Shown one piece after another: positions 8,682 through 63,777 of a stretch of 64,000 nt of DNA. Numbering within the stretch: the stretch's first letter is position 1; each line of letters opens with the position of its first letter. The DNA is from a virus (Duplodnaviria; Caudoviricetes): positions 1 to 64,000 of IMG/VR virus record IMGVR_UViG_3300021060_000011. The stretch is one strand, 5' to 3'. A program made the translations under genes and the position numbers. Under the pieces are notes generated by a model. That model was given only the letters and a program-made list of their open reading frames with translations, was not told where the DNA came from and made no database searches.

Positions 8682-8992
8682 GATCCCTCGCCCTCGTCAT
8701 GGATCTCTGGGTGGTTCAGCATCGTGTCGACAAGCTCGCGGATATCGTTGGTGCGAATGCGCTTGTCGCGGGCGATGGTTTCTTGCCGCTGCGTCCGCTC
8801 CTTGATCTCGGTGCGGATGCCCTCGATGTACCGACGCCCGTCATCGGCCGTCTTGGCGACGCGGACACCCTCGCGGGCCGTGCTCTCTGAAGCGGCCTTA
8901 CTCTCTTCGAGCGCCGCGATAAGCCGCGCGGACGTTTCGTCGTTGCCGTGCCGACAAGTGACGAGATCGGCGAGGCGCGACAGCCATTTCAT
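8675..8992 (-). CDS. hypothetical coiled-coil protein (lysis cassette)
   Basis: coupled ORF MKWLSRLADL. Confidence 0.65.
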   Translation of the reverse strand: MKWLSRLADLVTCRHGNDETSARLIAALEESKAASESTAREGVRVAKTADDGRRYIEGIRTEIKERTQRQETIARDKRIRTNDIRELVDTMLNHPEIHDEGEGSC

Positions 8993-9423: not shown

Positions 9424-9426
9424 CGG

Positions 9427-9972: not shown

Positions 9973-9980
9973 GGGGTGCC

Positions 9981-10775
9981 TCAGGAGTTCCAGATGCGGG
10001 AAAGGGTAGTGGCGAGCCATCCGCCGACGCTGCCGGTCTGAACGGAGGGTTCGGCCGGCGGCAGCACGCCGCTCTTGCGGGGCGCAGGCGCGACCAGCGG
10101 GCCGACCGTGACGGGCGGGATGGGGACGGCCTCGACGCCGCCAGGGACGTGCTGTGCGGCCAGCAGCGCGGCGCGGAAGTCGCGGAAGTACCCCGCGATC
10201 AGATCCGCTTTGTCCGTGCCGTTGATGATGGCCCGTGCGCCTACGGGGATCGACGCGCCCGTGCCGAAGAACTGCGACAGCTTGCGGCCGGTGAACCAGC
10301 CTTCGGCCATGCCCCGGAACATGATCGCGGCGGCGACGTCCGGCACCATCGCCATGTCGGGCGTGACGGTCAGGTCCATGGTCTGGTCAAGGATGCCGAG
10401 GGCCTGAAGCTCACCTGTCGCGCGGCGGTAATTGGCCCGCCCGGTCAACTGGACGTAGCCCCGACCGGCGAACTTCACGCCGTCGCCCGGCACAGTGTTG
10501 CCAAGATCCTTGGCGACTTTCGGCCGGTCGCCCTGCGGATCGTACATCCGGCGATAGTACGCGTCCCCGCCGTACTCTTTGACGGGCAGCATGGTCTTGG
10601 CCGTCTCATGGAAGGCCGTCGCGAGACAGTAGGCCAGCGCGTCGGTGGCGAGAAGCGGCGGGCAGGCGTCCAGCAGGCTTTCCATGCCGGAGACCTGCCC
10701 CTGGGACAGCGATCCACCGAAGGGTTTGGTGCGCACAGCATTGAAGAACGCCTGCCGATTGAGGGCAGCGGCCAT
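9981..10775 (-). CDS. endolysin, GH19 chitinase-like
   Basis: AY.LAT.FHET, LGNT.PGDG.KF.GRGYVQLTGRANY, AR.IINGTD.A. Confidence 0.92.
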   Translation of the reverse strand: MAAALNRQAFFNAVRTKPFGGSLSQGQVSGMESLLDACPPLLATDALAYCLATAFHETAKTMLPVKEYGGDAYYRRMYDPQGDRPKVAKDLGNTVPGDGVKFAGRGYVQLTGRANYRRATGELQALGILDQTMDLTVTPDMAMVPDVAAAIMFRGMAEGWFTGRKLSQFFGTGASIPVGARAIINGTDKADLIAGYFRDFRAALLAAQHVPGGVEAVPIPPVTVGPLVAPAPRKSGVLPPAEPSVQTGSVGGWLATTLSRIWNS

Positions 10776-10806
10776 AGTCTCTCTCCGGGGATTGTCAGAA
10801 AATCAG

Positions 10807-10835
10807 TTGCAACCGGCGCGATGGGCGCGCATTCT
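10807..10835 (+). promoter_or_regulatory. sigma70-type moron promoter
   Basis: TTGCAA-N17-CATTCT. Confidence 0.6.
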
Positions 10836-10841
10836 GAGTTG

Positions 10842-10898
10842 GTCACGACCCGCCACAGGATCTGGTTCGCCAGACTGCAAAAGGGCGGGTCTTTTCGT
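10842..10898 (+). ncRNA. candidate ~55-nt small RNA / attenuator hairpin
   Basis: GACCCGCC...GGCGGGTC-TTTT closing stem with inner TCTGG-TTCG-CCAGA. Confidence 0.45.
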
Positions 10899-10997
10899 TG
10901 AGGGGCAGACAGGTGTTGCGGGCGCTCATTAGAGGCCCAAGCCGGTTCGAGTCCGGTCGGAAGCACGGGGTTCGACTCCCCGCTGCCTACTTCCTCA
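10899..10997 (+). ncRNA. tRNA-like RNA with two T-arms
   Basis: GCCGG-TTCGAGT-CCGGT and CGGGG-TTCGACT-CCCCG; acceptor-like GGGCAG/CTGCCT; no D arm, no CCA. Confidence 0.55.
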
Positions 10998-11086
10998 GAA
11001 CGTAAACCTCGGCATAAACACCGCCGTGGGAAGGTGTCCTGACTGCCAGGGTCGTGGTAGGAGCGTTTCTCTCACGGGAGATCGCG

Positions 11087-11374
11087 ATGAGTGACAACGT
11101 CCGAATTCTGCAACTCACCCCGCCGACCGGCGACGGCGTTCAGTGCCGGGCCATTGCCCGCGAGCGCGAGACGGCGCGCTGGTCGCAGATCACCCCACTC
11201 CTTCAGGAGATCCAGATCGGCAAGGTGCCGGCCGGCAGCAGGTTCGCAAACTACCAGGACGGCTGGGCGACCTTCACGGCGCCGGATGGCACGGAGATGC
11301 GCTTCGACCTACGCGAGCCGCTGAAGCTGCATGAGGGCGCCGGGATGGCGACTCCCACGGGCGCTATGAACTAA
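11087..11374 (+). CDS. moron, hypothetical protein
   Basis: SD GGGAG; opposite strand to late operon. Confidence 0.65.
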   Translation: MSDNVRILQLTPPTGDGVQCRAIARERETARWSQITPLLQEIQIGKVPAGSRFANYQDGWATFTAPDGTEMRFDLREPLKLHEGAGMATPTGAMN

Positions 11375-11383
11375 GGTATCCCC

Positions 11384-12310
11384 ATGCGGCACGCTGTTGT
11401 TTTTTCTTCCTTCGTTCCTGACACCGAAGTGGCAAGAGATGTAGGCGCCTATTACATCGACCTTTTCCAGCGACGGTTCCGCGACTGCACGATCTATGTT
11501 GGCATCAATTCCGGTTCATCTCGCAGTTGGCACGCGAGTTTAGCCGACGCAGATCTTGACATCGTCATCTGCGAAACGCCCGACCGCCTCGTCGTAAACT
11601 CCGATGTTTCGGGGTTTCAGTCCGCCCTACGAACGCTTCGTAATACGCGCGCGCAGCACGACTATTACTGGTTTGGCCACACAAAGGGGGCGACCCACGA
11701 CGCGTTTCGGCACACCGATGGGTTGCGAGAGGTGATGGAGCGAGAGTTCTGGTCTCGCCGGAGCGAAGTGGAGACATTTTGCGATCCGACACGACACGGC
11801 ACGTTCTGTGCCCTCCCGATGCTTGCAACAAGCAGATCAAGCGAGACGGTCGATTATCTTCGCCGGATCTTTCCGGCTTTGTACCCTCCGGTCGGGATCT
11901 TTCCATACGCTACATTTTTCGGGATGACCGGAACTGCTTTACGCAACTTCTTAGCCAGTGCCGCCGAAAGCTTTTTTACGAAAAATCTTATCGAGGGGAC
12001 AGGAGTCTCGCGATACTTCTTCGAAGGCGGGTTCTCTTGGGTGGCCGATATGGCAGGCTTCGAGCCGTACTTGCTCCAGAAAGGCCCTAGGTTCCCGCCC
12101 GATGACCCTCTTCTGAGGGCACCCTGCCGCGACTATGAATTCGTCGCCAATCAACAGCGGGCCGAGAAGGTGGTTGAGATGTGGCGAGCTGATAGGGCTG
12201 GCCACGATTTCGCCGGCTGGCCGTTGTGGGCAGGAGAAATGATAGACTATCAAGGTAATATCTACGGAGCAGATGAATTTTTCCGCATGAACCCTGATTA
12301 CAATCCATGA
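11384..12310 (+). CDS. moron, putative glycosyltransferase-like protein (HTKG motif)
   Basis: YYWFGHTKG and RYFFE motifs recall RgpF-like GT-A enzymes; AT-richer; convergent with tailspike. Confidence 0.5.
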   Translation: MRHAVVFSSFVPDTEVARDVGAYYIDLFQRRFRDCTIYVGINSGSSRSWHASLADADLDIVICETPDRLVVNSDVSGFQSALRTLRNTRAQHDYYWFGHTKGATHDAFRHTDGLREVMEREFWSRRSEVETFCDPTRHGTFCALPMLATSRSSETVDYLRRIFPALYPPVGIFPYATFFGMTGTALRNFLASAAESFFTKNLIEGTGVSRYFFEGGFSWVADMAGFEPYLLQKGPRFPPDDPLLRAPCRDYEFVANQQRAEKVVEMWRADRAGHDFAGWPLWAGEMIDYQGNIYGADEFFRMNPDYNP

Positions 12311-37380: not shown

Positions 37381-38087
37381 TGCTCCGCTCCTACCTTCGC
37401 CTTACGGGCGGCTTCTGAGGCGGCGAGACGTTCGGCGAGCGCCTTGTTCTCGGCGGCGCGCTCAACGGCAGCGGCCTGCCCCTCGACCTCGCGGGCATCA
37501 CGCATCTTGGCGGCGCGCGCAGTCTCGGCCACGAACTCGTCGTAGCGCCGTGCGACCTCGGCCCGTTCCTCGTCAGTGGGGAGCGTGTAGACCTCGGCGT
37601 CGAGCACAGCGTTGATCTTGGCGCGCTCTTCCTGCGCTGCAGCGAGGAACGAACGGCACACCGCCGCGATCTCACCCGGCTTCGGTGCGTGGATGCCCTG
37701 CCCGCTCGTGCCGTCAAGGAACTGCATGCAGGCCCGCTCGACAGCCCAAGCCGGAAACTTCGTCAACACGGCGAGGTAGGCTTGCCGTTGAAGCTTCTGC
37801 GTCTCCAAATCGACTGTAGGGGCCGCCATGACGCTTCGGAGCATTCCGACCGACCGTCGCACCACCGCGGCGTCGCAGCCCGCCAGAGCCCCGTCCAGGG
37901 CGTTTCTACGGCCTATCAGAAGCGCACGTTGCTCCTCGCTCGGCTCATAGGCCGCCGACAAGGCGCAACGGCGGAAGTTGCCGGGGATCGTTTCCAGCAG
38001 ATTGTGGAGCATCCCGGTAAGGTCGGCCGTCCGCCTGTCGGCCGGCGCGATCCCAGTTCCGGTGGTGGTCGTGAGAGCCGTGGTCAT
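37377..38087 (-). CDS. replication accessory protein (follows initiator)
   Basis: Y...L..FPAWAV..AC...P.PGE motif typical of the gene after DUF1376 initiators. Confidence 0.6.
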   Translation of the reverse strand: MTTALTTTTGTGIAPADRRTADLTGMLHNLLETIPGNFRRCALSAAYEPSEEQRALLIGRRNALDGALAGCDAAVVRRSVGMLRSVMAAPTVDLETQKLQRQAYLAVLTKFPAWAVERACMQFLDGTSGQGIHAPKPGEIAAVCRSFLAAAQEERAKINAVLDAEVYTLPTDEERAEVARRYDEFVAETARAAKMRDAREVEGQAAAVERAAENKALAERLAASEAARKAKVGAEQ

Positions 38088-38904
38088 CGTGGCCTCCCTG
38101 CATTTCGGTGTTCGCGTCTAGGGCGTCAGCGGCCCAGAAATCAGCGGCGGGTGGACGGCCAGTCGGCGTCCTCCGTTTCGCATCGCCTGGCGGCGCAGGC
38201 TGATCGGCCCAACGTCCTTGGTTCAGCCACACCGCGGGGCCGACCCAGTCGTAGTGCTCGGGCTTCGTCGCGATGTACCGGCGCAGCCCGTCCATCAGCT
38301 CGGCGAAGGTGGCGAGCTTCTGTTTCCGAACTCGGTTGAAGGATTTTTCGGCCGCAGGCTTGGCAACCTTGTTCGGCTGGACGCCCCACCAGATGTCGAA
38401 CGCACCCTCGGGGAAACCGTCATCAACCAAAAGAGGAAGAGGCGTAGCCTCTTTCTCTACTGTCTTGTCTAGTCTTCTCTCGTCTTTTAGGCTTGAAACG
38501 TCATTAAGCGCCGCTTGACCCGCATCGTTATTTTCCAATGGGTTAGAGGTGCGGCCGCTCTCGTTTTTCCCAGCTTTCTCACGAAAAGCGCGGGTTTTTC
38601 CGCCTTTTCCAGCGTTTTCTCGGTTTTTCTCAACAAAACGCAGCTCTACGGCGGCGCGAGCGTTGCAGATCCGGCCATCGTGCATGGTCAATTTGCCGGC
38701 CGCCAGAAGCTCGGCGAGGGCCTTCGTGAAAGCCTTCACGGTCATGTTGCAGCGACCGGCGATGCCCCGGTCGTTCGGGGTGATCGGGCCTTCGTTCAGC
38801 ATGATGAGCTGAACGACGACGTGGTAGGCGCGATAAGCCGCGTCGCTGAGGTTCTCGGTCCCGTCCATCCACGCGGGGATGTCGTGCTTGTAAAAGCCAA
38901 CCAT
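37945..38904 (-). CDS. phage replication initiator, YdaU/DUF1376 family
   Basis: FYKHDI..W...T..LS...Y, C-terminal F..WW...P.KV.K..A.K.F...WLNQGRW.D. Confidence 0.8.
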   Translation of the reverse strand: MVGFYKHDIPAWMDGTENLSDAAYRAYHVVVQLIMLNEGPITPNDRGIAGRCNMTVKAFTKALAELLAAGKLTMHDGRICNARAAVELRFVEKNRENAGKGGKTRAFREKAGKNESGRTSNPLENNDAGQAALNDVSSLKDERRLDKTVEKEATPLPLLVDDGFPEGAFDIWWGVQPNKVAKPAAEKSFNRVRKQKLATFAELMDGLRRYIATKPEHYDWVGPAVWLNQGRWADQPAPPGDAKRRTPTGRPPAADFWAADALDANTEMQGGHDDHGSHDHHRNWDRAGRQADGRPYRDAPQSAGNDPRQLPPLRLVGGL

Positions 38905-44595: not shown

Positions 44596-44865
44596 TCAGG
44601 CTCCGGATAGAGTGACAGTATTGGGAAGGTCGGCATCACGGCAGGGGCGCGCTAATTGGTTCGGGCGCGCAGCATGAGCAGCCACCAACTCGGCGTAGGT
44701 GATCGCCTTGCCCTTCGGCTTCGCCGCCATCAGAGCTGGCCAGTACCGAACCGGGATCGAGCCGCGCCGCTTCATGGCGGCGGCATGCTCAGTCGGCTTT
44801 CCAATCGCCCGACCCACGTTGGCCGGACCGTCGAAACGCTCAAAGATGGCTGAAACCGTGCTCAT
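44596..44865 (-). CDS. cro: Cro-like repressor
   Basis: I...F.G...V..AIG......M..RGSIP..YW; divergent from cI. Confidence 0.85.
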   Translation of the reverse strand: MSTVSAIFERFDGPANVGRAIGKPTEHAAAMKRRGSIPVRYWPALMAAKPKGKAITYAELVAAHAARPNQLARPCRDADLPNTVTLSGA

Positions 44866-44877
44866 GGGTTTGCACGC

Positions 44878-44916
44878 TACGAAACGTATCGCGTTCAGTC
44901 AAGACGAAACGTATCG
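44878..44916 (-). promoter_or_regulatory. OR operators flanking the pR -35 (TTGACT)
   Basis: minus strand CGATACGTTTCGTC-TTGACT-GAACG-CGATACGTTTCGTA; 25-bp period. Confidence 0.9.
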
Positions 44917-44938
44917 CGGAATATGTTTTCGAGATCGA

Positions 44939-45688
44939 ATGACCGAACCGAACGAGCGCCTACAAATTGCCAGATCGCGCGCTGGCTACGCCGACGCGAC
45001 GAGCGCCGCAAAAGCGTTCGGATGGAACGACGTCACCTATCGCGCGCATGAGTCCTCCGGCCGTGGAATTCGCAGGACGGTCGCGGAAAAGTACGCCAAG
45101 GCATTTAGAGTGAGTCCAGCTTGGCTCATGCATGGCGAGGGCGAAGGACCTTCGTCTGACCCAAGCTCGAAATCTGAAGTGCACCCATCGGACATGAAGG
45201 TAGCAGCAATTCGGGTTGCTGGCACAACAGAGGCTGGGGCATTCCGCGAGGTGGATCAGTACGACGACGCCGGTGACGGCGAGTACGTTTTTGATGAGCA
45301 GGACGCCGAATTTCCACGCGCTCGAATGATGGCTTTCGACGTGGCTGGCGACTCAATGAACGAGGCCGACCCACCGATCCTACCGGGCGCTAGAGTTGTT
45401 TGTGTGGACTTCGGAGATACCGGGCTCCCGCTGATTGATGGGATGCTCGTTGTCATTGAGCGCGTCCAAGACGGCGGCCATCGGCGGGAATGGTCTATCA
45501 AGGAGGTCGAGGCCCTTGAGGATCGCACCGTCTTCCATCCGCGTTCATCGAACAAGAAGCACAAGCCCATCGTCATGTGGGACGATCCTGACAGGGAGCC
45601 AGGCGAGAGCGCCGAGGTGATCGCGCTCGTGCGGAGCGTGATTTACGGCGTCGCAAGCGGCCGGCGTCGGAACCCAAGGAAACGCTAA
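44939..45688 (+). CDS. cI: CI-like repressor (XRE HTH + S24 peptidase)
   Basis: N-terminal HTH; AG cleavage-like site; V.GDSM and IKE catalytic Ser/Lys. Confidence 0.92.
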   Translation: MTEPNERLQIARSRAGYADATSAAKAFGWNDVTYRAHESSGRGIRRTVAEKYAKAFRVSPAWLMHGEGEGPSSDPSSKSEVHPSDMKVAAIRVAGTTEAGAFREVDQYDDAGDGEYVFDEQDAEFPRARMMAFDVAGDSMNEADPPILPGARVVCVDFGDTGLPLIDGMLVVIERVQDGGHRREWSIKEVEALEDRTVFHPRSSNKKHKPIVMWDDPDREPGESAEVIALVRSVIYGVASGRRRNPRKR

Positions 45689-50620: not shown

Positions 50621-51939
50621 CCACCCAAACTCTTTCCGAAGCCGGCCAGAAGCTCGCGGATGCGCTGCGAACCAGCGGCATTCTCTGGATGGACGAGCGT
50701 TCCGATATCAAAACAGCGGGCAGCGAGACGATTGTGCCGCCGCGCTTCCTCAACACCGCCGCCGCGCTCCTCTTCACCCCACCTGAGGGAGAGGGTGCGG
50801 GTGACAAAACAAGATTACAGGCGATCTGCGAAGACGTGGAGCGCGAACTTGGCTGCGGCGGGCTGAGCGGGGTCGGCATCATCTACGGCGATTTCGCTCG
50901 TGAAGTCGCTCGTCGCTACGCCGCCCTCGCCAGCCCGCAACCCGCCGTACAAGGGCTGGTCGCGGCGGGGGTGTCCAATGAGGCCGTGGAGGCCGCGAGC
51001 GCGGCGTTCTACGACACCATGATCGGATCGGAGCGCGAGTTCTGGCCGCACCACGACGGCTGGGCTGGCAAGAACGAGGCGTTCAAGACCAGGGTGCGCG
51101 GCAGAATGCGGACGGCTCTGGAGGCCGCCACCCTCACGCCCCCGGCAGACCCCAAGACGCCGGATGCCGGGGTGGGGTCAATTGATACCAGCCTTGACGT
51201 ACTGATTGATGGCGTCATCAGGGATTATCCCGTCATCCAAGAGACCCTGCGCAAGTCCGAAGGGATCGCCCAACCCGCCCCGGCGGGTGAAGACGATACG
51301 GGGGTGCGGGAGGCGCTGGCACCGTTCGCTGCCTTCAACGATGCGGCGACGTTCCCTGGCTCCACGTGGTCGAAGGAGCCTGACAGCGCCAACGCGCGGG
51401 ATATCGTCGGCATCAGCGCGCCGCTTACGGTCGGCATGTTTCGCGCCGCTTCTGTCGCCCTCGCCCCCCAACCGCCCAAGGCCGAGACGCCGGCAGGAGT
51501 GGTGCTAGACGGCCTGACGCTCGAACAGTTGATCCATAACTACGGCGCGGCCGAATACAACGCGGCGGTGGACGCCAACGAAGGCGCAGAACCTGAGCAC
51601 TACGAGCAGAAGATCGCAGAAGCTAAAGCGAAGCTCATGCAGGGCATCGCCGCCCTCTCCACCGCCCCAGCGGCACGGCCAGGAGACGGGGTGGAGGCCG
51701 ATAAGGACCGGCTGGATTGGCTGGAAAAGGCCGCCCGCAAGAGTCGTAGCGGCATCTCGTTCGATCACATCCCGTCCGTCGAGGGTGAGCGGTCCGGCTT
51801 CCGCTTCATGCGCAAGTTCTTCATCGGCGACGCGCGCGACACTCTGCGCTCGGCCATCGACGCCGCACGTGGCGAGGTCGAGCAAATGCAGCGCCGTGAA
51901 CTCGTCGCCGCACCGGCCGCTGACGGAGGGCGGGGCTGA
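50617..51939 (+). CDS. mosaic Ead/Ea22-like accessory protein
   Basis: several unrelated short modules separated by Ala/Pro linkers; D..RLDWL...LR.AIDAA module. Confidence 0.65.
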   Translation: MTTQTLSEAGQKLADALRTSGILWMDERSDIKTAGSETIVPPRFLNTAAALLFTPPEGEGAGDKTRLQAICEDVERELGCGGLSGVGIIYGDFAREVARRYAALASPQPAVQGLVAAGVSNEAVEAASAAFYDTMIGSEREFWPHHDGWAGKNEAFKTRVRGRMRTALEAATLTPPADPKTPDAGVGSIDTSLDVLIDGVIRDYPVIQETLRKSEGIAQPAPAGEDDTGVREALAPFAAFNDAATFPGSTWSKEPDSANARDIVGISAPLTVGMFRAASVALAPQPPKAETPAGVVLDGLTLEQLIHNYGAAEYNAAVDANEGAEPEHYEQKIAEAKAKLMQGIAALSTAPAARPGDGVEADKDRLDWLEKAARKSRSGISFDHIPSVEGERSGFRFMRKFFIGDARDTLRSAIDAARGEVEQMQRRELVAAPAADGGRG

Positions 51940-52397
51940 TGTCACCCCTTCAGTATCGCCGCTGGTACGACTTCGCTCGCCGTATGGCGCTGCGCACGAT
52001 GGATGTCACGCCCGCACGGCGTGCCAAGATCGCCAAAGAGATCAGGCACATTCTATGGATACTCGAAAACGACATCTCGGAAATCGAAAGCTGGGACGGT
52101 CCGGGATGCTACGTTGGCGATGAGGTCAGTCGCCTCCTGTACGACGCTGGTCACAACGACGAGCGTCAGTTTAAGAACGGTAGCGTCGAGCAAATAGAAC
52201 ATCGCTTCATCAGTCAGGTCTCTTGCTGCATCCGCGCGGGGCTAGATGTTGCCTTAGAGCCATCAGGGGGCGTGCTCGGTTGGACTGTGGGCGATCTACG
52301 CCAGATGTACCCGCTTGGCCTGCCGGCTTGGGTCGCGGCTTATTTTGTCGAACCCATCACAGCCGAGACGCCCTCCGAGATGGGGGTATGGCTATGA
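51939..52397 (+). CDS. hypothetical protein (lower GC)
   Basis: TGATG overlap. Confidence 0.65.
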   Translation: MSPLQYRRWYDFARRMALRTMDVTPARRAKIAKEIRHILWILENDISEIESWDGPGCYVGDEVSRLLYDAGHNDERQFKNGSVEQIEHRFISQVSCCIRAGLDVALEPSGGVLGWTVGDLRQMYPLGLPAWVAAYFVEPITAETPSEMGVWL

Positions 52398-52924
52398 CTT
52401 TCGCCCCCGAAGACCAGAACGGCCTGCGCGAGGCGCTGGCGAGGGCGATCCGTGCGTGGGCGAACCGTTTCGGCGCGTTGCGTCCATGGTCCTCACTCGC
52501 GGACCATCTCATCGCCGGCCCCCTCGCCTCGCTCATCGCCGAACGGGATGCAGCCAACAAAGTCTGCGACATGGCGGCCATGTCCGGCGGCTTCTACTCA
52601 CGCACAGCCGAGAACATGGAGCGCCGCGCCCTCGCCGCCGAAGCCGAGATCACCCGCCTCAAGGAGGGGATGGAGGCGCTGAGGCAGCTCAGCGACGTGG
52701 CGGCGCCGGGAGACTGGTCTGTGTCCGGGGTCCGGCGGCGCGTAGACGAAGCGAGTTGCGTCATCATCGACGCGCCTTCGTGCCCCGTACTGCTCGCGCT
52801 TCCGACAGGCAATGGCGTCCAAGCCCTCGAAGCCTTGCGCGACGCCAAGCTCGCCGTCGCCGCTGTCAATTTTGTCCGCGCCGCCCTCGCAACCCTCTCC
52901 CCGAAGGAGCACCCCCATGGCTGA
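52394..52924 (+). CDS. Ead/Ea22-like hypothetical protein
   Basis: RA.AAEAE..RL coiled coil; A.PG.W...DA...AA.N motif. Confidence 0.6.
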   Translation: MTFAPEDQNGLREALARAIRAWANRFGALRPWSSLADHLIAGPLASLIAERDAANKVCDMAAMSGGFYSRTAENMERRALAAEAEITRLKEGMEALRQLSDVAAPGDWSVSGVRRRVDEASCVIIDAPSCPVLLALPTGNGVQALEALRDAKLAVAAVNFVRAALATLSPKEHPHG

Positions 52925-53507
52925 GACAACGAGCGCGCCGAGCTTGCGGGAGCTTTCCGAGGCGGCGACGCAGGGCGAGCTAAACTATCCGAATTGGGGC
53001 ACGGATTTTAGGGCCGGTACGGTCTTGGTGGGGATGACGAGCCCAGCCTTCGAGGGGAATGGCAGAGCCAACCGGGCATACATCTGCCGCCTCTGGAACG
53101 ACCACCGCGCCAACCGCCTCATCGATCCCACCACCCTAACCGAGGCTATCGCCTCCGCACGGGCTGAGGGCGTCCGCGAGGGGCTGGAGCGGGCGGCGGG
53201 GATGGAGGGCCGCTTCTGGCTTGAACTACGCGAGCCCCGGCGCGTGCCCGAGCGCAAAGGATCATGGCCGCGAGCCGACATCGCAAAGGTGCTCCGCGAG
53301 TTCATGGCGGCCCGGCCTCAGGCCTACATCACCGTCGTCACCATGGGACCGGACGGGCCGCACTTCGATGATGGCCCCGAGACGCTTCAGATGGCCGACG
53401 CCCGGTCCATGTCTACGGGGCGCCAGCACATCGAGCGCGTCCGTGCCGCTCACGGGTCCCGCGAGGATGTTGCGACCCTCACCCCCGGAGGCCGGACCGA
53501 TGGTTAA
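52917..53507 (+). CDS. Ead/Ea22-like hypothetical protein
   Basis: LRELSEAATQG; AR.EG.REGLERAA. Confidence 0.6.
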   Translation: MAETTSAPSLRELSEAATQGELNYPNWGTDFRAGTVLVGMTSPAFEGNGRANRAYICRLWNDHRANRLIDPTTLTEAIASARAEGVREGLERAAGMEGRFWLELREPRRVPERKGSWPRADIAKVLREFMAARPQAYITVVTMGPDGPHFDDGPETLQMADARSMSTGRQHIERVRAAHGSREDVATLTPGGRTDG

Positions 53508-55163: not shown

Positions 55164-56264
55164 ATGTCGAAGATCGAATGGACCGAGCGGACCTGGAACC
55201 CCATCGTCGGCTGCTCGGTCGTGAGCCCCGGCTGCACGAATTGCTACGCAATGGCCATGGCCGCGCGGCTCGAGCGCATGGGCCTCGAACGCTACGTCGG
55301 CCTCACGCGGCCGAGCAAGGCCGGGCCGGTGTGGACGGGTGAGACGCGCCTGGTCGAGGACACGCTCACCGAACCCCTGCGTCGGCAGAAGCCGACCATG
55401 TGGTTCGTGAACAGCATGTCGGACCTGTTCCATGAGAGCGTGCCGGACGCGTGGATCGACCGGGTGTTCGCCGTCATGGCGCTGGCGCCGCAGCATACCT
55501 TCCAGGTGCTGACGAAGCGGTCGGCGCGGATGCGGGCGTACATGGATCGGCTCGCATCGCAACGTAAGGGCTTTTCGGGGTTCCCGGCGGAGAAGAACGC
55601 GGCCGCCCGCCTCCACCTGGAGGCTCAGAACCTGAACTGGTTCGTGGATAGCCCGGGCGACGGCGCGTACCTCTTGAGCCGTTGGCCCGGCTGGCCGCTC
55701 CCCAACGTCTGGCTCGGCGTCTCAACCGAGGACCAGCGCCGGGCCGACGAGCGCGTGCCGGACCTGCTGGCGACGCCGGCCGCCGTGCGGTTTGTGTCGG
55801 CCGAGCCGCTGCTGGGGTCGATCGATTTCACCCGTCTGTTTGTCGTGAACGGCAACGGCGGTGCCGGGCGATACAACGCCCTCACCGGGGAGTGGCGGCC
55901 CGGCGACATCGCCGCGATGGCCAACCATGACGGGCCGCGTCTCGACCAAATCATCGTCGGGGGCGAGAGCGGTTCCGGCCCCCGGCCAATGCATCCGGCC
56001 TGGGCGCGCTTGATCCGCGATCAGTGCCAGGGAGCCGAGACCAAGTTCTTCTTCAAGCAGTGGGGCGCGTGGGTGCCGGAGGCGCGAGGCGGGGACTGGA
56101 TGATCCTGTCGGCCGATGGTGATCTGGATATTCCGGATGACCGCTGCCCAGACGAAGAGGCCGGTGAGGTCGCCGTCACACTCATCGGCAAACGCGCCGC
56201 CGGCCGCCTCTTCGACGGCGTCGAGCACAACGGCATGCCGGCCGGCGCGGGAGCTGGGTTATGA
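55164..56264 (+). CDS. phage Gp37/Gp68 (DUF5131) radical-SAM-like protein
   Basis: SKIEWT..TWNP..GCSVVSPGCTNCYA (CX6CX2C), FVNSMSDLFH, LTKR, S.EPLL, GGESG, FFFKQWG. Confidence 0.92.
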   Translation: MSKIEWTERTWNPIVGCSVVSPGCTNCYAMAMAARLERMGLERYVGLTRPSKAGPVWTGETRLVEDTLTEPLRRQKPTMWFVNSMSDLFHESVPDAWIDRVFAVMALAPQHTFQVLTKRSARMRAYMDRLASQRKGFSGFPAEKNAAARLHLEAQNLNWFVDSPGDGAYLLSRWPGWPLPNVWLGVSTEDQRRADERVPDLLATPAAVRFVSAEPLLGSIDFTRLFVVNGNGGAGRYNALTGEWRPGDIAAMANHDGPRLDQIIVGGESGSGPRPMHPAWARLIRDQCQGAETKFFFKQWGAWVPEARGGDWMILSADGDLDIPDDRCPDEEAGEVAVTLIGKRAAGRLFDGVEHNGMPAGAGAGL

Positions 56265-56857
56265 CCGCGTTCCTCCCCGGCTTCGAGAAGACCGCCCGTC
56301 CGGACTGGATCGGCTCTGCCGAGTTCAGCCCGTGCGGCCACCACCGACGGCGCCTGGACCGGTGGTGGAGCGACGAGCCGCGCGCCCTCGTTTGCGGCTG
56401 CAATCCCAGCGACGCAGGCAGCAAGAAGAACGATCCGACCGTCTGGCGACTGTTCGACCTGCTCACCGGCCGGCCGGGCATCGGTGGGTTCACGGTGGTG
56501 AACTGGGAGGACTACGTCGCCCCGCACCCGTCCGATCTCGCGATCTGGCGCAGGGATCTGATCCGCTACTATCCCGAGCGGTACCAGGCGATCCGGGACG
56601 CGAACCTCTCACGCATTCGCTCCATGGCCGAGGCCGCCCCGGTGCGGATCATCGCCTGGGGCAACCTCGTCCCGCCGGACGACGAGCATACCGCCCTCGT
56701 GCTCGACGCCATGTCGCTCGACGGCACGCACGACCTGCATGCGTTCGAGATCACGCCCCAGGACCGGCCGAAGCACCCCGGTGCGCGCGGCCTGCACCGG
56801 ATCGCCAGCGGCTTGCCTCTGCCCGTCTGGCGCCCAGCCCGAAGGATCGCAGCATGA
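56261..56857 (+). CDS. DUF1643 family protein
   Basis: A.FS.CG.HR..L.R.W, NPS.A....NDPT, VVN, AWG, PKHP. Confidence 0.85.
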   Translation: MTAFLPGFEKTARPDWIGSAEFSPCGHHRRRLDRWWSDEPRALVCGCNPSDAGSKKNDPTVWRLFDLLTGRPGIGGFTVVNWEDYVAPHPSDLAIWRRDLIRYYPERYQAIRDANLSRIRSMAEAAPVRIIAWGNLVPPDDEHTALVLDAMSLDGTHDLHAFEITPQDRPKHPGARGLHRIASGLPLPVWRPARRIAA

Positions 56858-57336
56858 ACCGCCGGTTCGCCGCCGAAACGTCGGTCTTGATGGACCGCAG
56901 CATCGCGGAGATCCGCACCACGGTCCGGCGCTACGGCGCCACCGAGTTCGCCCACATGGAGAGCGATGCTCAGGCGGCGATCACCTTCACGATGCGGGGC
57001 CGGCGGGTGCTGTTCCGGCTGGCTATGCCGGATCGGAAGGCCCGCGAGTTCACGCACACCGATGCGATGAACAAGCGCCGCACCCCGGCGGCGGCTGAAA
57101 CCGCATGGGAGCAAGCTTGCCGCTCCCGCTGGCGCGCCCTCGCTCTGGTCATCAAGGCGAAGCTCGAAGCCGTCGAGGTCGGCATCGTCGTGTTCGAGGA
57201 CGAGTTCCTGGCGAACACCGTGCCCCCCGGCGCCAGCGCCACCTACGGCGAGGCCGTGCGCGAGAGCATGGCCCTGGCCCACGAGAAGCAGTCCCTCACC
57301 CCCTTGCTCCCCTACATCTCCGGAGACGGCCGATGA
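56854..57336 (+). CDS. conserved phage hypothetical protein
   Basis: T.V...RS..EI...V.RYGA; WRAL.LVIKAKLEAVE.GI..FE.EFL. Confidence 0.75.
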   Translation: MNRRFAAETSVLMDRSIAEIRTTVRRYGATEFAHMESDAQAAITFTMRGRRVLFRLAMPDRKAREFTHTDAMNKRRTPAAAETAWEQACRSRWRALALVIKAKLEAVEVGIVVFEDEFLANTVPPGASATYGEAVRESMALAHEKQSLTPLLPYISGDGR

Positions 57337-58073
57337 ACGATCCCCTGCGCCTGCCCTGCCCGACCTGCTCCGGCACCCGGAGCACCACGACCGGCGATCG
57401 GCACGCCGACACGAACATGGACGTCTGCGCGACGTGCCATGACGAGGGCTGGATCCCGGCGCGGACGGGCGAAAGCCCGGAGGCCTCGTTCCAGCACAGC
57501 CCCACCGTCCGCAGGATCATCGGGCCTACCATCCTCCTTGCGAGCGGCAATTACTTCGACCTGCTGGCGCCGGAGCACAGCACGTTCACGATCGAGGATG
57601 TCGCCCACGGGCTCTCCAACACCTGCCGTTTCGCAGGCCAGTGCATCCGCTTCTACAGCGTCGCCCAGCACAGCGTGATCGTCTCGCAGCATGTCCCGCC
57701 CGAGTTCGCTTTCGCCGGACTGATGCACGATGCGGCGGAAGCCTTCATCGGCGACATCACCAAGCCCCTGAAGGACATCCTTCCTGACTATCGAGCCTTG
57801 GAAAAACGCATCGAAGCGGCTGTGCTGCAGCGCTTCGGCTTGCCGGCCGTCATGCCGCCTGAGGTCAAGGAAATCGACGTCGTGATGCTGGCAACCGAGC
57901 AGGCGCAGCTCATGCGGAATCGTGATGATTGGAACTACACCCGAGGCCGCACACCCATTCCGATCGAGATCCCCGCTATGGGGCCCGAGGCTGCCAAGGC
58001 CGCGTTCCTGGCGCGGTACGCTGAAGTGCGGGCCCAGGGCACGGGCATCTCCCTCGCCGGAAAGGCTGCGTGA
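57333..58073 (+). CDS. HD-domain 5'-deoxynucleotidase (YfbR/YfdR-like) with N-terminal zinc finger
   Basis: IEDVAH.LS..CRF.G....YSVAQHS, LMHDAAEAFIGD...PLK; CPTC...CATC. Confidence 0.88.
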   Translation: MNDPLRLPCPTCSGTRSTTTGDRHADTNMDVCATCHDEGWIPARTGESPEASFQHSPTVRRIIGPTILLASGNYFDLLAPEHSTFTIEDVAHGLSNTCRFAGQCIRFYSVAQHSVIVSQHVPPEFAFAGLMHDAAEAFIGDITKPLKDILPDYRALEKRIEAAVLQRFGLPAVMPPEVKEIDVVMLATEQAQLMRNRDDWNYTRGRTPIPIEIPAMGPEAAKAAFLARYAEVRAQGTGISLAGKAA

Positions 58074-58776: not shown

Positions 58777-59017
58777 GCCCCTGCCGACGCGCATTTCGTG
58801 CTGCGTCCCGTTCTGCCAGCGCACCCGGCGGAACGACATCGGCTTCGAGGAATGGATCTGCGGCGATCACTGGCGCGCCGTGCCAGCCCCAATGCGACGG
58901 GTGTACAGCCGAGCCCTTCGCCGGTATCGGCGCGGGGTCGGCTGCTACGGCGCACGCGAAAGCCGGTTGTGGCGGCGCCTCCGCCGGGCGGCCGTTGAGG
59001 CGGCCGCCGGCCTGTAG
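58766..59017 (+). CDS. zinc-finger hypothetical protein, probable CTG start
   Basis: RISCCVPFC.RT...EWIC.DHW; GAGGGG SD 7 nt before CTG; missed by ORF track. Confidence 0.55.
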   Translation: MKSEPLPTRISCCVPFCQRTRRNDIGFEEWICGDHWRAVPAPMRRVYSRALRRYRRGVGCYGARESRLWRRLRRAAVEAAAGL

Positions 59018-59187
59018 GGCCCGCCAAACGCCGATCCGCGTCGGTAGTTCCTCCACACCGGAGTCCGCCTGGTCGCTTGCAACCGGCTCGCGCAGGACTC
59101 GACTCTCGTTACCGAATCATTGCACGTGGTGAAGCTTCGCGTTTATAGCGTCAATCGACGTTAAAAACGGAAGCGAGGGTTCGGAAC

Positions 59188-60408
59188 GTGGACGCGCAAA
59201 CCATGCTGCAACGACCGATCCACGTGGGCGGGGCGACAAGCGGCGAAGTCATCGACGAGTACGCCTCGATCCTGCGCGAGAAGCTCCGGACGCTGTCCGA
59301 GGCCCTGTTCAGTCCCGATTCCGTGAAGACGCTCCGCCGGTTCACCTCGGGGGAGGCGGCCAAGATCATCGGAGTGACCGACAACCGCCTGCGCCAGCTC
59401 TCGCTAGCCGGCGATGGTCCCCTCCCCGAGGTCTCGCCCACCGGCCGCCGGTCGTACACCCTCGCCGACATCCACGGACTGCGCGCGCACATGACCGCGA
59501 TCTCTCGGACAGGGCGCGCCTACAAGCCCTGGCGCGCCGAGGGGGAGCACCTCCAGGTCGTCTCCGTGGTGAACTTCAAGGGCGGCTCCGGCAAGACGAC
59601 CACGGCCGCCCACCTAGCGCAATCCCTGGTGCTGCGCGGCTACCGGGTTCTGGCCATCGACCTCGACCCCCAGGCCAGTCTCTCGGTCCTGCACGGCGTG
59701 CAGCCGGAGATCGAGGTGGGGCCCAACGAGACGCTCTATGGCGCCCTGCGGTACGGGCCCGAGCGGCGACCGATCGCCGAGATCATCCGGCCCACCTACT
59801 TCACCGGCCTCGACTTGATCCCGGCCAACCTCGAGCTGATGGAGTTCGAGCACGAGACGCCGAAGGCGCTCAACCGCCGGGACGACCGAGACCAGCTCTT
59901 CTTCGAGCGCCTGAGCCACGCGCTCCAGACCGTCGAGGACCGCTACGACGTCGTCGTGATCGACTGCCCGCCGCAGCTCGGCTTTCTGACCCTGGCTGCC
60001 CTCTACGCCGCCACGTCGCTGCTCATCACCGTCCACCCGCAGATGCTCGACATCGCCTCGATGTCCCAGTTCCTGACGATGACGGGCGACCTCCTTTCGG
60101 TGGTGCGCGAGGCCGGCGGCGAGATCCAGTTCGATGCAGTTCGCTTCCTCGTCACCCGGTACGAGCCGCAGGACACGCCGCAGACCCGCGTCGTCACCCT
60201 CCTCCGCCACCTGTTCGGCGAAGCGGTGCTGAACGCCACGATGCTGAAGTCCTCGGCGGTGTCGGATGCCGGCTTGTCGAAGCAGACGCTCTACGAGATC
60301 GGACGGGAGACCATGACCCGCTCGACCTACGATCGCGCGGTCGAATCGCTGGAGGCAGTCAACGGCGAGATCGAGGGCATGATCCGGCACGCGTGGGGCC
60401 GGGCATGA
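59188..60408 (+). CDS. repA: plasmid partitioning ATPase RepA (ParA family)
   Basis: N-terminal HTH, NFKGGSGKTTT, DLDPQAS, DCPPQLG.LT, HPQMLD..SM.QFL, S.A.SDAG..KQTLYE. Confidence 0.96.
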   Translation: MDAQTMLQRPIHVGGATSGEVIDEYASILREKLRTLSEALFSPDSVKTLRRFTSGEAAKIIGVTDNRLRQLSLAGDGPLPEVSPTGRRSYTLADIHGLRAHMTAISRTGRAYKPWRAEGEHLQVVSVVNFKGGSGKTTTAAHLAQSLVLRGYRVLAIDLDPQASLSVLHGVQPEIEVGPNETLYGALRYGPERRPIAEIIRPTYFTGLDLIPANLELMEFEHETPKALNRRDDRDQLFFERLSHALQTVEDRYDVVVIDCPPQLGFLTLAALYAATSLLITVHPQMLDIASMSQFLTMTGDLLSVVREAGGEIQFDAVRFLVTRYEPQDTPQTRVVTLLRHLFGEAVLNATMLKSSAVSDAGLSKQTLYEIGRETMTRSTYDRAVESLEAVNGEIEGMIRHAWGRA

Positions 60409-61439
60409 GCCGCAAGACCTCCCTCGACGCGCTGTTTGGCGGTAAGCCGCCGGAGCGATTGTCAGCTGACAATCCGCCCGCGCCGCCCCCGCCGGAGTTG
60501 TCAGCTGACAATCCGCCGGTCCCTCCCCCGGCCCTCGGCCCCGTGCGTGCGCGCAGCGGGGCCGTTCGTGCGATGGGCGCGACACTCGACGACCTGAAGG
60601 CCCGGGCTCGCTCAGCCGAGAACGTCGAGACCGGCTCCGTCGTCGCCGAGTTAGATACCGCGCAAATCGACGGCTCGTTCGTGGCGGACCGCGTGTCCGA
60701 CGCGACGGACCCTGCCATGGCCGGCCTCGTCGAGAGCATGCGCAGCGGGCAGCAAGTCCCGATCCTGGTGCGGCCGCATCCGGAGTCGCCGGGCCGGTAC
60801 CAGATCGCCTACGGGCATCGCCGCGTCCGGGCGGCGGCGGAGCTGGGCACCAAGGTCCGCGCGGTCATCCGGCCGCTTACGGACGACGAGCTGGTCGTGG
60901 CCCAGGGCAAGGAGAACCTGGACCGACGCGACCTCAGTTACATCGAGCGGGCCTTCTTCGCCCTGCGGCTGGAGATGCGGTCGTTCCCCCGCGAGGTGAT
61001 CTGCGCGGCCATGGCGACCGATCTGCCCAACGTGTCCCGGTTCATCACCGTCGCGCGGACCATCCCCGAGGACATCGTCGCGGCCATCGGGCCGGCGCCG
61101 AAGGCGGGGCGGCCGCGCTGGATGGATCTGGCCGAGCGCGTCCAGTCCAAGGGGCGGGCGGCGATCGACCGGCTGATGGGCGACGAGGCGTTTCAGGCCA
61201 TGTCCACGGACGAGCGCTTCGCTGCCGTCCTGGCGGCGGTCAGCGCCAAGCCGACGGGCAAGCGCAAGGCGAAGCCTAAGGACTGGCTCGACGGGGAGGG
61301 GCGGGCCGTCGCGCGCATCGAGCGCGCCGACAACCGGTTCGTCCTGACGATCAATGAGGAATTAGAACCAGAGCTCGGGGACCACCTCATGAGCCGGTTC
61401 GCAGAGATCCTTGCCGAGCATCGCGCTCGCAAGGCGTAA
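60405..61439 (+). CDS. repB: plasmid partitioning protein RepB (ParB family)
   Basis: GQQVPILVRPHP, YGHRR, AQG.EN..R.DLSYIERA, IGPAPKAGRPRW. Confidence 0.95.
   Translation: MSRKTSLDALFGGKPPERLSADNPPAPPPPELSADNPPVPPPALGPVRARSGAVRAMGATLDDLKARARSAENVETGSVVAELDTAQIDGSFVADRVSDATDPAMAGLVESMRSGQQVPILVRPHPESPGRYQIAYGHRRVRAAAELGTKVRAVIRPLTDDELVVAQGKENLDRRDLSYIERAFFALRLEMRSFPREVICAAMATDLPNVSRFITVARTIPEDIVAAIGPAPKAGRPRWMDLAERVQSKGRAAIDRLMGDEAFQAMSTDERFAAVLAAVSAKPTGKRKAKPKDWLDGEGRAVARIERADNRFVLTINEELEPELGDHLMSRFAEILAEHRARKA
60457..60512. promoter_or_regulatory. two parS palindromes
   Basis: TTGTCAGCTGACAA at 60459-60472 and 60498-60511; near match to repABC parS consensus GTTNNCNGCNGNNAAC. Confidence 0.85.
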
Positions 61440-61476
61440 CCCCGCCCGCAACCCCGAATAGAGGACGACGCACCGC

Positions 61477-61531
61477 AAAAGAAAAAGGCCCCCAAGACGT
61501 TTCCGTCCCGGAAGCCTTCTCCGTCTTCAGC
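61477..61531 (-). ncRNA. repABC counter-transcribed RNA (ctRNA)
   Basis: minus promoter TTGACG-N17-GATTCT (61566-61538); ends GGGGGCCTTTTTCTTTT; repB-repC intergenic. Confidence 0.85.
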
Positions 61532-61623
61532 AAACAGAGAATCCCACTTCCGACAGCTCCCGTCAAGAGTCAGGACGCCGTTTTGGCGAACGCCTTCGGC
61601 TTGCCCGGTGCCCGACACCGACG

Positions 61624-62823
61624 ATGAACCTGCACATCACGACGCCCTTCGGGCGGCGTTCGCTGACGGCTGCGCAGATCGATGCGCAGGCGAACGCGGC
61701 CGCATGCCCGCGCGATGCCACGGTCGACAAATGGGCCGTCTTCCGACACATCGCCCAGGCGAAAGACTGGCTCGGCGTATCCGACCGCTCGCTGTCCGTG
61801 TTGAACGCGCTCCTCAGCTTCCATCCCGAGACGGCCCTGATGCCGGGAGAGGGCGCTGGCCTTGTCGTCTTCCCCTCGAACACGCAGCTCGCTTTGCGCG
61901 CGCATGGAATGGCAGGGCCGACCCTGCGTCGGCACCTTGCCGCGCTGGTCGAGGCCGGGCTGATCATCCGGCGGGATAGCCCGAACGGCAAACGCTACGC
62001 CCGGAAAGGGCAGGGCGGGGTGGTCGCGCAGGCCTTCGGCTTCGACCTCATCCCGATCGTGGCGCGCGCAGCCGAGTTCGAGGCCCAGGCCGAGCGGATC
62101 CAGGCTGAGCGACGCACGCTGCACCTCGCCCGCGAGGCTGTGACGATCCTGCGCCGTGACGCGGCGAAACTCATCCTCGCCGGGATCGAGTCCGGGATCG
62201 CGGCAGATTGGACCGGCTATCGCGCCCGCTACGAGGCGATCCTGGGCGGGCTGACGCGCGCGCCTCGCCTCCTGGAGCTGGAGAGCATCCGCACCGCCCT
62301 GACGGCCCTGGTGGCCGATGTGAGCAAGTCCCTGACAGTTCGGCACGAAACACGAGAATCGAACGCCAGTGCTGATCGTAGTGAGCAGCACAGTCAGAGT
62401 TCAAAACCAGAGGCCTTAGATTCTGGAATGGCTATCGGGGATAGAGAAGAAGCCGGGGGCAGGGCACGTCCGGAAGGGGGGAGCGGGACGGCGACGACCT
62501 ACCCACTCGGGATGGTGCTGAACGCCTGCCCCGACATCGTCGACTACGCCCGCAACGGCATCCGTTCGTGGCGGGACCTTGCCGACGTCGCGGACCTTGT
62601 CCGGGGCATGATGGGCATCAGTCCGAGCGCCTGGCGCGACGCCCAGGACGTCATGGGGCCTGATGCAGCAGCGGCGACGATGGCGGCCATCCTGCAGCGG
62701 GCCGAACACATCAAGAGCCCTGGGGGCTACCTGCGCACGCTGGTGGAGCGGAAGAGGGCAGGGCGGTACAGTCTGGGTCCGGTGCTTCTGGCCCTTACTC
62801 GAGCGCGTGCAGCGGCAGCCTGA
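61624..62823 (+). CDS. repC: replication initiator RepC
   Basis: TTPFGRR, L.ALLSFHP, VFPSN.QL..RAHGM...TLRRHLA.LV..GLIIRRDSPNGKRYARK, ACPDI..Y, I.SPGGYLR.L; AT-richer ori-like patch ~62335-62450 with GANTC sites. Confidence 0.96.
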   Translation: MNLHITTPFGRRSLTAAQIDAQANAAACPRDATVDKWAVFRHIAQAKDWLGVSDRSLSVLNALLSFHPETALMPGEGAGLVVFPSNTQLALRAHGMAGPTLRRHLAALVEAGLIIRRDSPNGKRYARKGQGGVVAQAFGFDLIPIVARAAEFEAQAERIQAERRTLHLAREAVTILRRDAAKLILAGIESGIAADWTGYRARYEAILGGLTRAPRLLELESIRTALTALVADVSKSLTVRHETRESNASADRSEQHSQSSKPEALDSGMAIGDREEAGGRARPEGGSGTATTYPLGMVLNACPDIVDYARNGIRSWRDLADVADLVRGMMGISPSAWRDAQDVMGPDAAAATMAAILQRAEHIKSPGGYLRTLVERKRAGRYSLGPVLLALTRARAAAA

Positions 62824-62942
62824 GGGCCCGGGCCCAGCGCGCCGCAGATGTGGTGTGGAATGGGGGCTGAGGCTTCGCTGCGATGCAAATCTGCTTAGCC
62901 GCAGGGCGGAGGAGAGACCCGCCAAACTGAGGAGGGAAGGCG

Positions 62943-63419
62943 ATGCAGACCTTTGCGGAAATTTGGGAGCGGGACGGTCGGTGGCTGTTAGGCCCCGGCT
63001 TGCTCGGCGACGTGATCGAGCACCTTCGCGGGCGAGCCCCGATTGTCGTGGCGAGCGAGCAGGACCCCTCAACCGCGAACATGACGCTCCCCCTGCCCAA
63101 CGTGCGGGACGAAGCGAGCGGGGACCCGCGGAGCATCTATTTCGCGGTCCCGCCCGAGCTGAGAGACCTCTTTGCGGAGCGGTGCAGCCTCATCGTTCGC
63201 GACTGGTACGGACCCGAGGTGGATCGCGCGCTCGGGCAGTACGTCGGCAGGCATCAGATGAGACAACACACGCTCGACAGGATCAACGGCGAACTGCGGA
63301 ACATCGAGCGAGCCCGCGAGGCACGGGGCGAGGACGCCGAGCTTTGGCAGCTTGCCGCCACCCGTTTCGGTTTCAGCCGTTGGGCGCTGCCGAAGCCGGC
63401 CGGCTTGGCCGCCGAGTAG
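62943..63419 (+). CDS. hypothetical protein
   Basis: SD GAGGAGG. Confidence 0.6.
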   Translation: MQTFAEIWERDGRWLLGPGLLGDVIEHLRGRAPIVVASEQDPSTANMTLPLPNVRDEASGDPRSIYFAVPPELRDLFAERCSLIVRDWYGPEVDRALGQYVGRHQMRQHTLDRINGELRNIERAREARGEDAELWQLAATRFGFSRWALPKPAGLAAE

Positions 63420-63445
63420 GGCGGAGGGGAAAGGAGCCGAACCAA

Positions 63446-63715
63446 ATGAGCAGATACACGTTCGCCGGCGCCACGCTCAGCATCGCAGGGCAGGCGGTCA
63501 CAGTCCGGGGCTTCCTCGTGGAGCCGCTTCCCGATCTGGCAACGGCATCGCTTGCCGAGCTGCGCGAGGCGGAATGGTCGGGCCGTGAGCCGTGCAAGGC
63601 TACGGATGGGGCATGGCACGTCTGCCAATGCTGCGGCGCGGCCAAGATCGACGGCGAGGGCCACAAGCCCGGTTGTGCGATGGCAGCGGCCATCCTGGCG
63701 CGGATACCGGAATAG
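63446..63715 (+). CDS. phage-type zinc-binding protein
   Basis: EWSG...CQCCG......GH.PGC motif; SD AAGGAG. Confidence 0.6.
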   Translation: MSRYTFAGATLSIAGQAVTVRGFLVEPLPDLATASLAELREAEWSGREPCKATDGAWHVCQCCGAAKIDGEGHKPGCAMAAAILARIPE

Positions 63716-63777
63716 GGCGGAGGCGACCTCCGCCACGCTGAGCTTGGCGCTGCCGGCCCCTGCCCTATCTGGCTGGC

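Follow-up and report, generated by a model that had tools for sequence, protein, structure and literature searches.

Good documentation of phage-plasmids comes mostly from enterobacteria and a small number of other groups. Among P1-like elements, conversions between phage-plasmids, prophages and plasmids have been described (PMC10879196); in the Alphaproteobacteria, pLM21S1 of Sinorhizobium sp. LM21 carries a RepC-like system (PMC5537653), and a paper on Roseobacter phage-plasmids makes brief mention of 'RepABC' (PMC10090143). Here we analyze a repABC replicon found in a 64,000-nucleotide (nt) stretch of viral DNA (the window), which is the first 64 kb of the IMG/VR record IMGVR_UViG_3300021060_000011 (Duplodnaviria; Caudoviricetes), a single linear contig of 125,103 bp in whose coordinates all positions are given. 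To our knowledge, a canonical alphaproteobacterial repABC with its countertranscribed RNA (ctRNA) has hardly been described on a complete tailed-phage genome. An initial annotation, made from the sequence alone, had placed the replicon in the early operon of a podoviral prophage integrated at a tRNA-Ser gene. We find instead that repABC probably belongs to a second, myovirus-type genome on the same contig (phage B), most likely a phage-plasmid, and not to the tRNA-integrated podophage (phage A). Four lines of evidence bear on this reading: the gene content of the contig, the topology of the assembly graph, the attachment (att) sites of phage A, and a comparison of the genomic slot in which relatives of phage B carry an integrase and phage B carries repABC.

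The repABC cassette

The three rep genes are real and intact; all are of full length, lie on the plus strand and match their equivalog models far above the cut-offs. The first, repA (59188-60408; 406 amino acids [aa]), encodes the ParA-type partition ATPase and autorepressor and scores 614.8 bits against TIGR03453 (cut-off 348; E = 1e-185; model positions 3-387 of 387). The ParB-type centromere-binding protein is encoded by repB (60405-61439; the longest open reading frame [ORF] begins at 60393), which matches TIGR03454 from end to end (328.4 bits; cut-off 201.5; E = 5e-98) and whose ATG at 60405, according to a start-codon check, overlaps the repA stop codon. The replication initiator gene, repC (61624-62823; 399 aa), matches NF040974 from end to end (480.9 bits; cut-off 150; E = 3.5e-144), and its product contains both RP-C domains (PF03428, N-terminal, and PF11800, C-terminal). 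The 184-nt spacer between repB, which ends at 61439, and repC, which starts at 61624, holds an antisense match to the ctRNA family RF00489 of Rfam (61475-61520, minus strand; 54.5 bits against a gathering score of 50, over the full model), which has its own terminator hairpin and U-run. By analogy with other repABC systems, this antisense RNA would limit repC expression and so control copy number and incompatibility. A promoter and terminator scan around repABC was uninformative, failing to recover even the ctRNA terminator.

Within the 5' end of the repB frame there are two perfect palindromes (GATTGTCAGCTGACAATC at 60457-60474 and TTGTCAGCTGACAATC at 60497-60513), which have the core TTGTCAGCTGACAA in common. 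They resemble the 16-bp parS consensus of repABC systems (GTTNNCNGCNGNNAAC), with a deviating outer base (A/T for G/C) in one copy, and we regard them as putative parS sites. The pair occurs nowhere else in the 125 kb, and both palindromes are retained in G001 (IMGVR_UViG_3300045938_000166; 29,319 bp), a contig from a different metagenome. Read in the repB frame, the palindromes encode a duplicated LSADNPP within a proline-rich N-terminal tail. Origins of repABC replicons are known to lie inside repC. In the present repC a GC scan shows a patch of 50% GC (at about 62320-62450, against about 68% around it), which on compositional grounds is a candidate origin. The initial annotation had reported all of these features, namely intact repA-repB-repC, two parS palindromes, a ctRNA with its terminator and an origin-like patch in repC, and each is borne out.

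It was also right that co-oriented, phage-type genes flank the replicon. Upstream of repABC lies the distal early-left operon of phage B (52445-58789, plus strand), which comprises a 176-aa ORF, a 231-aa ORF, small ORFs and three plus-strand genes with recognizable domains: a DUF5131 gene (55164-56264), a DUF1643 gene (56261-56857) and an HD-like gene (57105-58073). Small ORFs follow downstream in the same direction. The cassette as a whole spans 58790-63761 (plus strand); its left limit is set where 97% identity to G001 starts, and its right limit where homology to a prophage of Methylobacterium sp. Leaf99 starts. The first gene in common with that prophage is an 88-aa ORF (63778-64044, plus strand), which crosses the window end at 64000. 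Downstream of repC, within the cassette, lies a 158-aa ORF (62943-63419, plus strand), which is missing from G001 and gave no match in Pfam or PHROGs; its counterpart in the plasmid NZ_CP099613.1 is annotated as 'RepB C-terminal domain-containing protein'.

A short repeat shared by two phage genomes

Between the tRNA-Ser end of the contig and repABC lies a 798-bp repeat, R (51647-52444, plus strand), which is 100% identical to the contig end (124306-125103). A large ORF contributes roughly its last 97 codons to R, which also contains a 152-aa ORF and, of the gene that follows, the first 50 nt; an exact 35-mer from R recovered no further contig in IMG/VR. We refer to the sequence left of R (1-51646) as region A and to that right of R (52445-124305) as region B. 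Beyond R, proteins of the two regions gave only four weak partial matches to each other in a self-BLASTP comparison (35-42% identity over 35-100 residues). The tetranucleotide and GC composition of the segment at 52.4-59 kb was non-discriminating between A and B (correlation of 0.92 against 0.89).

A second exit from R is found on L104 (Ga0182232_1002279; 3730 bp), a contig from a metagenome of the Joint Genome Institute (JGI), which starts with the exact last 127 nt of the record and diverges from the window from 52445 onward. The largest k-mer that the SPAdes assembler normally uses is likewise 127 nt long. L104 carries a diverged homolog of the ORF at 52812-53507 and two features that are missing from the record itself: a minus-strand gene for a tyrosine integrase of 437 aa (PF00589; 37.1 bits) and, 123 nt past it, an exact 17-nt copy of the tRNA-Ser 3' end (E = 5e-5). 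A second assembly (MEGAHIT, ENA ERZ27250785) resolves the same sequences differently. There, R stands alone as a 798-bp contig (k141_599140, L118; 100% identity). A contig of 72,143 bp (k141_119099) represents region B, its first 20.5 kb being 100% identical to 52304-72823 and beginning 141 nt inside R. A third, of 55,158 bp (k141_118727), runs from the last 141 nt of R through the L104 sequence to the att core (100% identity) and on into positions 91-11448 of the window (99.97% identity), and its opposite end stops 141 nt into R. Both long contigs thus have the length of their unique sequence plus two stretches of 141 nt (71,861 + 282 and 54,876 + 282). The region B unitig is flanked by R on both sides and contains no host junction, and Logan unitigs of the run SRR7162643 (L121 and L122) end exactly at the boundaries of the att core.

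From these assemblies we consider it likely that the contig traces a path through a figure-eight graph in which two phage genomes share R. The two copies of R would then be identical because the path uses one graph node twice. The general lesson is that a 125-kb 'virus' record can consist of two genomes joined at a short shared repeat. R itself corresponds to the C-terminal 100 aa or so of a 440-aa and of a 638-aa protein plus an identical 152-aa ORF in two otherwise unrelated phages, and to the right of it diverged homology goes on (the ORF at 52394-52924 and the homolog of the 52812 ORF on L104).

The first of the two genomes, phage A, is a P22-like temperate podophage that occupies 118-51646 of the window. 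Its integration target, a tRNA-Ser(CGA) gene outside the repABC element (26-115, plus strand; found by ARAGORN and, at 60.1 bits, by the Rfam tRNA model), lies at the left end of the window, as the initial annotation had it. The 17-nt attL core (CCCCCCTCTCCGCCAAT, 101-117) recurs at L104:3458-3474 (attR) and at about L120:3472-3488 (attP). In the alignment of the three sites, all contain this core, the left arm of attP equals that of attR, and the right arm of attP equals that of attL. Because the MEGAHIT contig closes through attP and the att sites align in this way, phage A is a self-contained temperate phage; its genome of 55,674 bp integrates at tRNA-Ser(CGA) and lacks repABC. This genome is made up of window positions 118-51646, R and 3.3 kb on the other contig. 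The virion genes of phage A lie at 12.3-34.6 kb (small [TerS] and large [TerL] terminase subunits, a P22-type portal, the major capsid protein [MCP], Hc3 and a tailspike), and its early-left operon reads Gp157-RecT-NinB-SpoU. The DUF1376 initiator gene named in the initial annotation is present (37945-38904, minus strand; 58.5 bits). Of the cI/cro switch claimed there, a cI-like gene (44699-45688) can be recognized, with weak helix-turn-helix (HTH) and S24 matches. Directly past the attR of phage A, L104:3537-3728 holds the start of another tyrosine-integrase gene (with the DUF6538 N-terminal domain). Because this second integrase gene begins just past attR, the arrangement suggests tandem islands at the same tRNA-Ser.

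These results bear directly on the model of a single podoviral prophage at tRNA-Ser that has repABC in its own early operon and passes through integrated, plasmid and lytic states. In its favor, gene orientation is uninterrupted over 47-63 kb of the contig. That continuity is outweighed by the attP-closed phage A genome, which has no repABC; by the integrase and attR of phage A, which lie on the other exit from R; by the unitig right of R, which bears a second complete virion module; and by G001, in which repABC is accompanied by DNA of the B type only. We therefore regard this model as very improbable. The tRNA-Ser gene, the DUF1376 gene and the podoviral virion genes, which the initial annotation had assigned to the same element as repABC, all lie left of R, and repABC lies right of it in a separate genome. 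Nor does repABC sit between attL and attR of the tRNA prophage. Region A (1-51646) contains no integrase, and neither the phage A integrase nor a further copy of the tRNA-Ser 3' end was found in the rest of the 125-kb contig, where the initial annotation had expected an integrase and attR beyond 64 kb; both are on L104. Two of the warnings it gave, of an assembly artifact and of a separate adjacent element, describe what we see: the join is a path through the 798-bp repeat, and repABC travels with a separate myovirus-type genome. The idea of three states fails for one podophage and survives only in the minority scenario of a cointegrate.

In that scenario homologous recombination at R has placed phage B inside prophage A; the product would read tRNA-Ser-A-R-B-R-C-attR over about 128 kb, and repABC inside the tRNA-bounded region would be either silent or an extra chromosomal origin and centromere. 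The submitted contig does read A-R-B-R and the graph permits such a path; Gp157 and RecT of phage A could promote the crossover, and the 100% identity of R argues for a recent exchange between A and B. That identity is, however, given by construction when one graph node is used twice. The assembler linked A-R-B and not B-R-C, which is unlike symmetric read support; phage A closes via attP at a head-sized 55.7 kb; and B-type genomes exist alone elsewhere, in G001 and in Leaf99. On these three grounds two molecules are favored. A weak indication in the same direction comes from exact-protein look-ups, which placed phage A genes in Logan SRR7162643 and the two B genes compared only in ERZ27250785. 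The same look-up returned 'not on record' for RepA, the phage B MCP and DUF5131 although their DNA is present, and absences from it are therefore weak evidence. Overall, we consider a true cointegrate unlikely; transient cointegration at R, perhaps aided by the RecT of phage A, is possible.

Phage B and the integrase slot

Phage B consists of R and 52445-124305 and measures 72,659 bp when closed. Past the window it continues with a UmuD-like gene, lysis genes and a myovirus virion module (together 64.2-93.6 kb), a late leader, early genes and an early-left operon that extends to 124305. The phage genes include those for a GpA-type TerL, portal, protease, MCP, sheath, tape measure, baseplate, Mu Gp48 and lysozyme. 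Packaging, head, tail and lysis functions are thus all represented on the same replicon as repABC, with repC, tail and lysis genes on one 72,143-bp unitig. The possibility that repABC is the replicon of an ordinary host plasmid with inserted prophages was rejected, since the 72-kb unitig holds phage genes and the cassette only.

The closest integrative relative is the prophage of Leaf99 (NZ_LMMU01000001.1, about 1.904-1.974 Mb), which is integrated in a 2.2-Mb contig. Its proteins are highly similar to those of phage B (TerL 96%, portal 96%, MCP 94% and sheath 93% at the amino acid level), and its virion module is 76-90% identical in nucleotides. The early-left operon of this prophage terminates in a 349-aa tyrosine integrase, and its other end begins at the homolog of the ORF at 63778; no repABC was found in the prophage region, and a RepC protein search of the Leaf99 genome was also blank. 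In three further relatives (G003, G004 and G005) an integrase follows soon after the homolog of the ORF at 52812-53507, and in a fourth (G006) an integrase remnant lies between the homologs of DUF5131 and of 63778-65042. Because Leaf99 and these four genomes place an integrase or its remnant at this position, the cassette (58,790-63,760) occupies the integrase-att slot of the phage B lineage. The relatives L076 and L083 are syntenic with the right-arm genes of B. Synteny with relatives of the DUF5131 and RecT genes is distant and mosaic; these relatives served the slot comparison and are not decisive for the assignment of genes to A or B.

The second informative relative, G001, carries repABC at 97% nucleotide identity, with a RepA protein that is 99.5-100% identical. 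The flanks of its repABC are of the B type only (homologs of 103.4-113, 63.8-65 and 92.1-99.2 kb at 85-97% identity), and it has no nucleotide match at all to region A. G001 has no virion module, and its TerL is shortened to 96 residues. It retains repABC, a 324-aa tyrosine recombinase and B-type early and late segments (L088 and L089), and looks like a phage-plasmid decaying into a plasmid or like a satellite-like derivative.

Because repABC replaces the integrase of its relatives, phage B is most likely a phage-plasmid; and because a complete repABC lies at the distal end of the phage early operon, in the same orientation, a plasmid prophage state is plausible. From the gene content we infer a circular extrachromosomal state for phage B, an active replicon and the following regulation. 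During lysogeny RepC would fire an origin inside repC, as is expected from the repABC family, and the ctRNA would limit the expression of repC and thereby keep the copy number near one per chromosome. Copies would be segregated by RepA and RepB via the two putative parS palindromes; these proteins would also autorepress the operon, and a phage repressor would keep the lytic genes off. On induction, the phage would switch to its own early genes (an SNF2 helicase, an HTH_36-HNH protein and others) and to its GpA-type terminase.

Several observations weigh against assigning repABC to an autonomous phage-plasmid. The only contig that joins repABC to host-linked sequence reads tRNA-Ser-A-R-B-R, and a figure-eight graph fits two circles or one cointegrate alike. 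Phage B closes on itself only through R. The MEGAHIT assembly ERZ27250785 may have been built again from the same sample or a sister one; it is independent in method but perhaps not in material. A repressor of phage B was not found: neither Pfam nor PHROGs gave a match for the genes at 115-116 kb that were candidates for repressor and cro. The initial annotation had proposed a search for circular contigs with both a terminase and RepC; no closed circular relative with repABC and virion genes was found in PLSDB, INPHARED or IMG/VR. Finally, phage-plasmids are expected to have no integrase; here the integrase of the slot is replaced by repABC, yet phage B retains a 324-aa tyrosine recombinase (98126-99100, minus strand). 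The record has no other tyrosine recombinase; this one is 99% conserved in G001 and missing from the Leaf99 prophage, and our guess is that it may resolve multimers.

The recombinase is also an argument for reading repABC as a passenger or decayed cassette, with phage B persisting in some other way, for example by integrating through the 324-aa recombinase or as a purely lytic phage. Relatives with a similar recombinase of 332-337 aa, however, have a separate integrase in the repABC slot in addition. Full-length rep genes go together with an intact ctRNA and two intact parS palindromes, and G001, which dropped its virion genes yet retained repABC, conserves the block at 97%. The 72-kb unitig, moreover, is uninterrupted by any host junction. 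A passenger is accordingly improbable in our view. A more elaborate combination holds that a Methylobacterium myovirus swapped its integrase-att segment for repABC (with ctRNA and parS) and became a unit-copy phage-plasmid that reversibly cointegrates, via an R kept identical in both phages, into the prophage of a co-resident podophage that encodes RecT. We find this doubtful; if it were true, reversible cointegration would give a plasmid-phage a chromosomal parking state and tie together the fates of two unrelated phages.

Several other genes of phage B deserve mention. Beside the repABC slot lies a stand-alone S24 peptidase gene (UmuD-like, 151 aa; 64203-64658, minus strand), 91% conserved in Leaf99 and 87% in G001, whose product may act as a cleavable regulator of the LexA type and not in mutagenesis. 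The Leaf99 prophage has a stretch of about 11 kb (G007:C1:1,906,680-1,917,981; L113), located between its UmuD-like and lysis genes, that the contig does not have. Elsewhere in phage B are genes for a protein with an OmpR/CtrA-type DNA-binding domain and no receiver (Trans_reg_C; 118994-119653, plus strand), a C5 cytosine methylase (120978-122672, plus strand) and an N6/N4 methylase (94510-95433, minus strand).

Relation to described plasmids and phage-plasmids

The cassette is closely similar to the replicons of repABC plasmids of the Alphaproteobacteria (p42d and the pTi type), with which it shares the order repA-repB-ctRNA-repC, the ParA, ParB and RepC families, RF00489 in the spacer and palindromic parS. 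At the protein level RepC shares 86-88% identity with its counterparts on Methylobacterium plasmids (NZ_CP099613.1 is among the nearest), and the repB-repC DNA is 85.7% identical to that of an ordinary ars/tad plasmid of a leaf Methylobacterium. Unlike in those plasmids, the cassette is on a complete tailed-phage genome, directly after a phage early operon, and the parS half-site, which falls within the repB frame, has A in place of G as its first base. Among deposited phage genomes no close RepC was found, the best matches reaching 44% identity (on 6-kb fragments) and, for RHEph10-like phages, 29-31%. When 2.9 million IMG/VR contigs were scanned by motif with a RepC alignment, canonical RepC turned up only in this lineage (G001 was the sole find), and PLSDB, searched with both terminases, gave no close plasmid relative. 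A phage-derived plasmid by appearance is pMRAD08 of M. radiotolerans JCM 2831 (NC_010507.1, L124; 21 kb, circular), which has a GpA-type terminase with 55% amino acid identity to the TerL of phage B, an S49 head protease and a ParA-like ATPase, and no repABC.

As in the phage-plasmids P1, N15 and SSU5 and the groups of Pfeifer et al., phage B is a temperate genome with plasmid replication and partition genes and with no integrase in the usual slot. It differs from P1, N15 and SSU5 in its repABC with ctRNA, in its Methylobacterium host and in its combination of a lambda-like head with a Mu/P2-like contractile tail, and in that its plasmid state is read from its genes. The RHEph10-like Rhizobium phages and pLM21S1 (PMC5537653) are likewise alphaproteobacterial phage or plasmid-prophage genomes with a RepC-family initiator; unlike in phage B, their RepC-like protein (29-31% identical over about 77% of its length) is borne on an unrelated backbone of about 115-120 kb. 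The Roseobacter phage-plasmids (Tritonibacter mobilis A3R06 and relatives; PMC10090143) are also alphaproteobacterial, but measure 40-50 kb, and the element studied uses parAB and a P4-family primase; we found no DNA or protein relation between them and phage B.

The Leaf99 prophage has the same myovirus backbone as phage B and the same slot-adjacent gene (the homolog of 63778), and is unlike it in its chromosomal placement, its 349-aa integrase and the lack of both repABC and the 324-aa recombinase. Like the P1-like elements (PMC10879196), phage B thus stands alongside an integrative relative (Leaf99) and a virion-less one (G001). A repABC-bearing phage should also be incompatible with any resident plasmid or chromid of its own group, which would be a new kind of phage-plasmid interference. 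Phage-plasmids as such are already known; the present one comes with a clean natural series of integrative (Leaf99), repABC-bearing (the present contig) and virion-less (G001) forms, through which conversions among phages, phage-plasmids and plasmids can be tested directly in a phyllosphere genus that is tractable.

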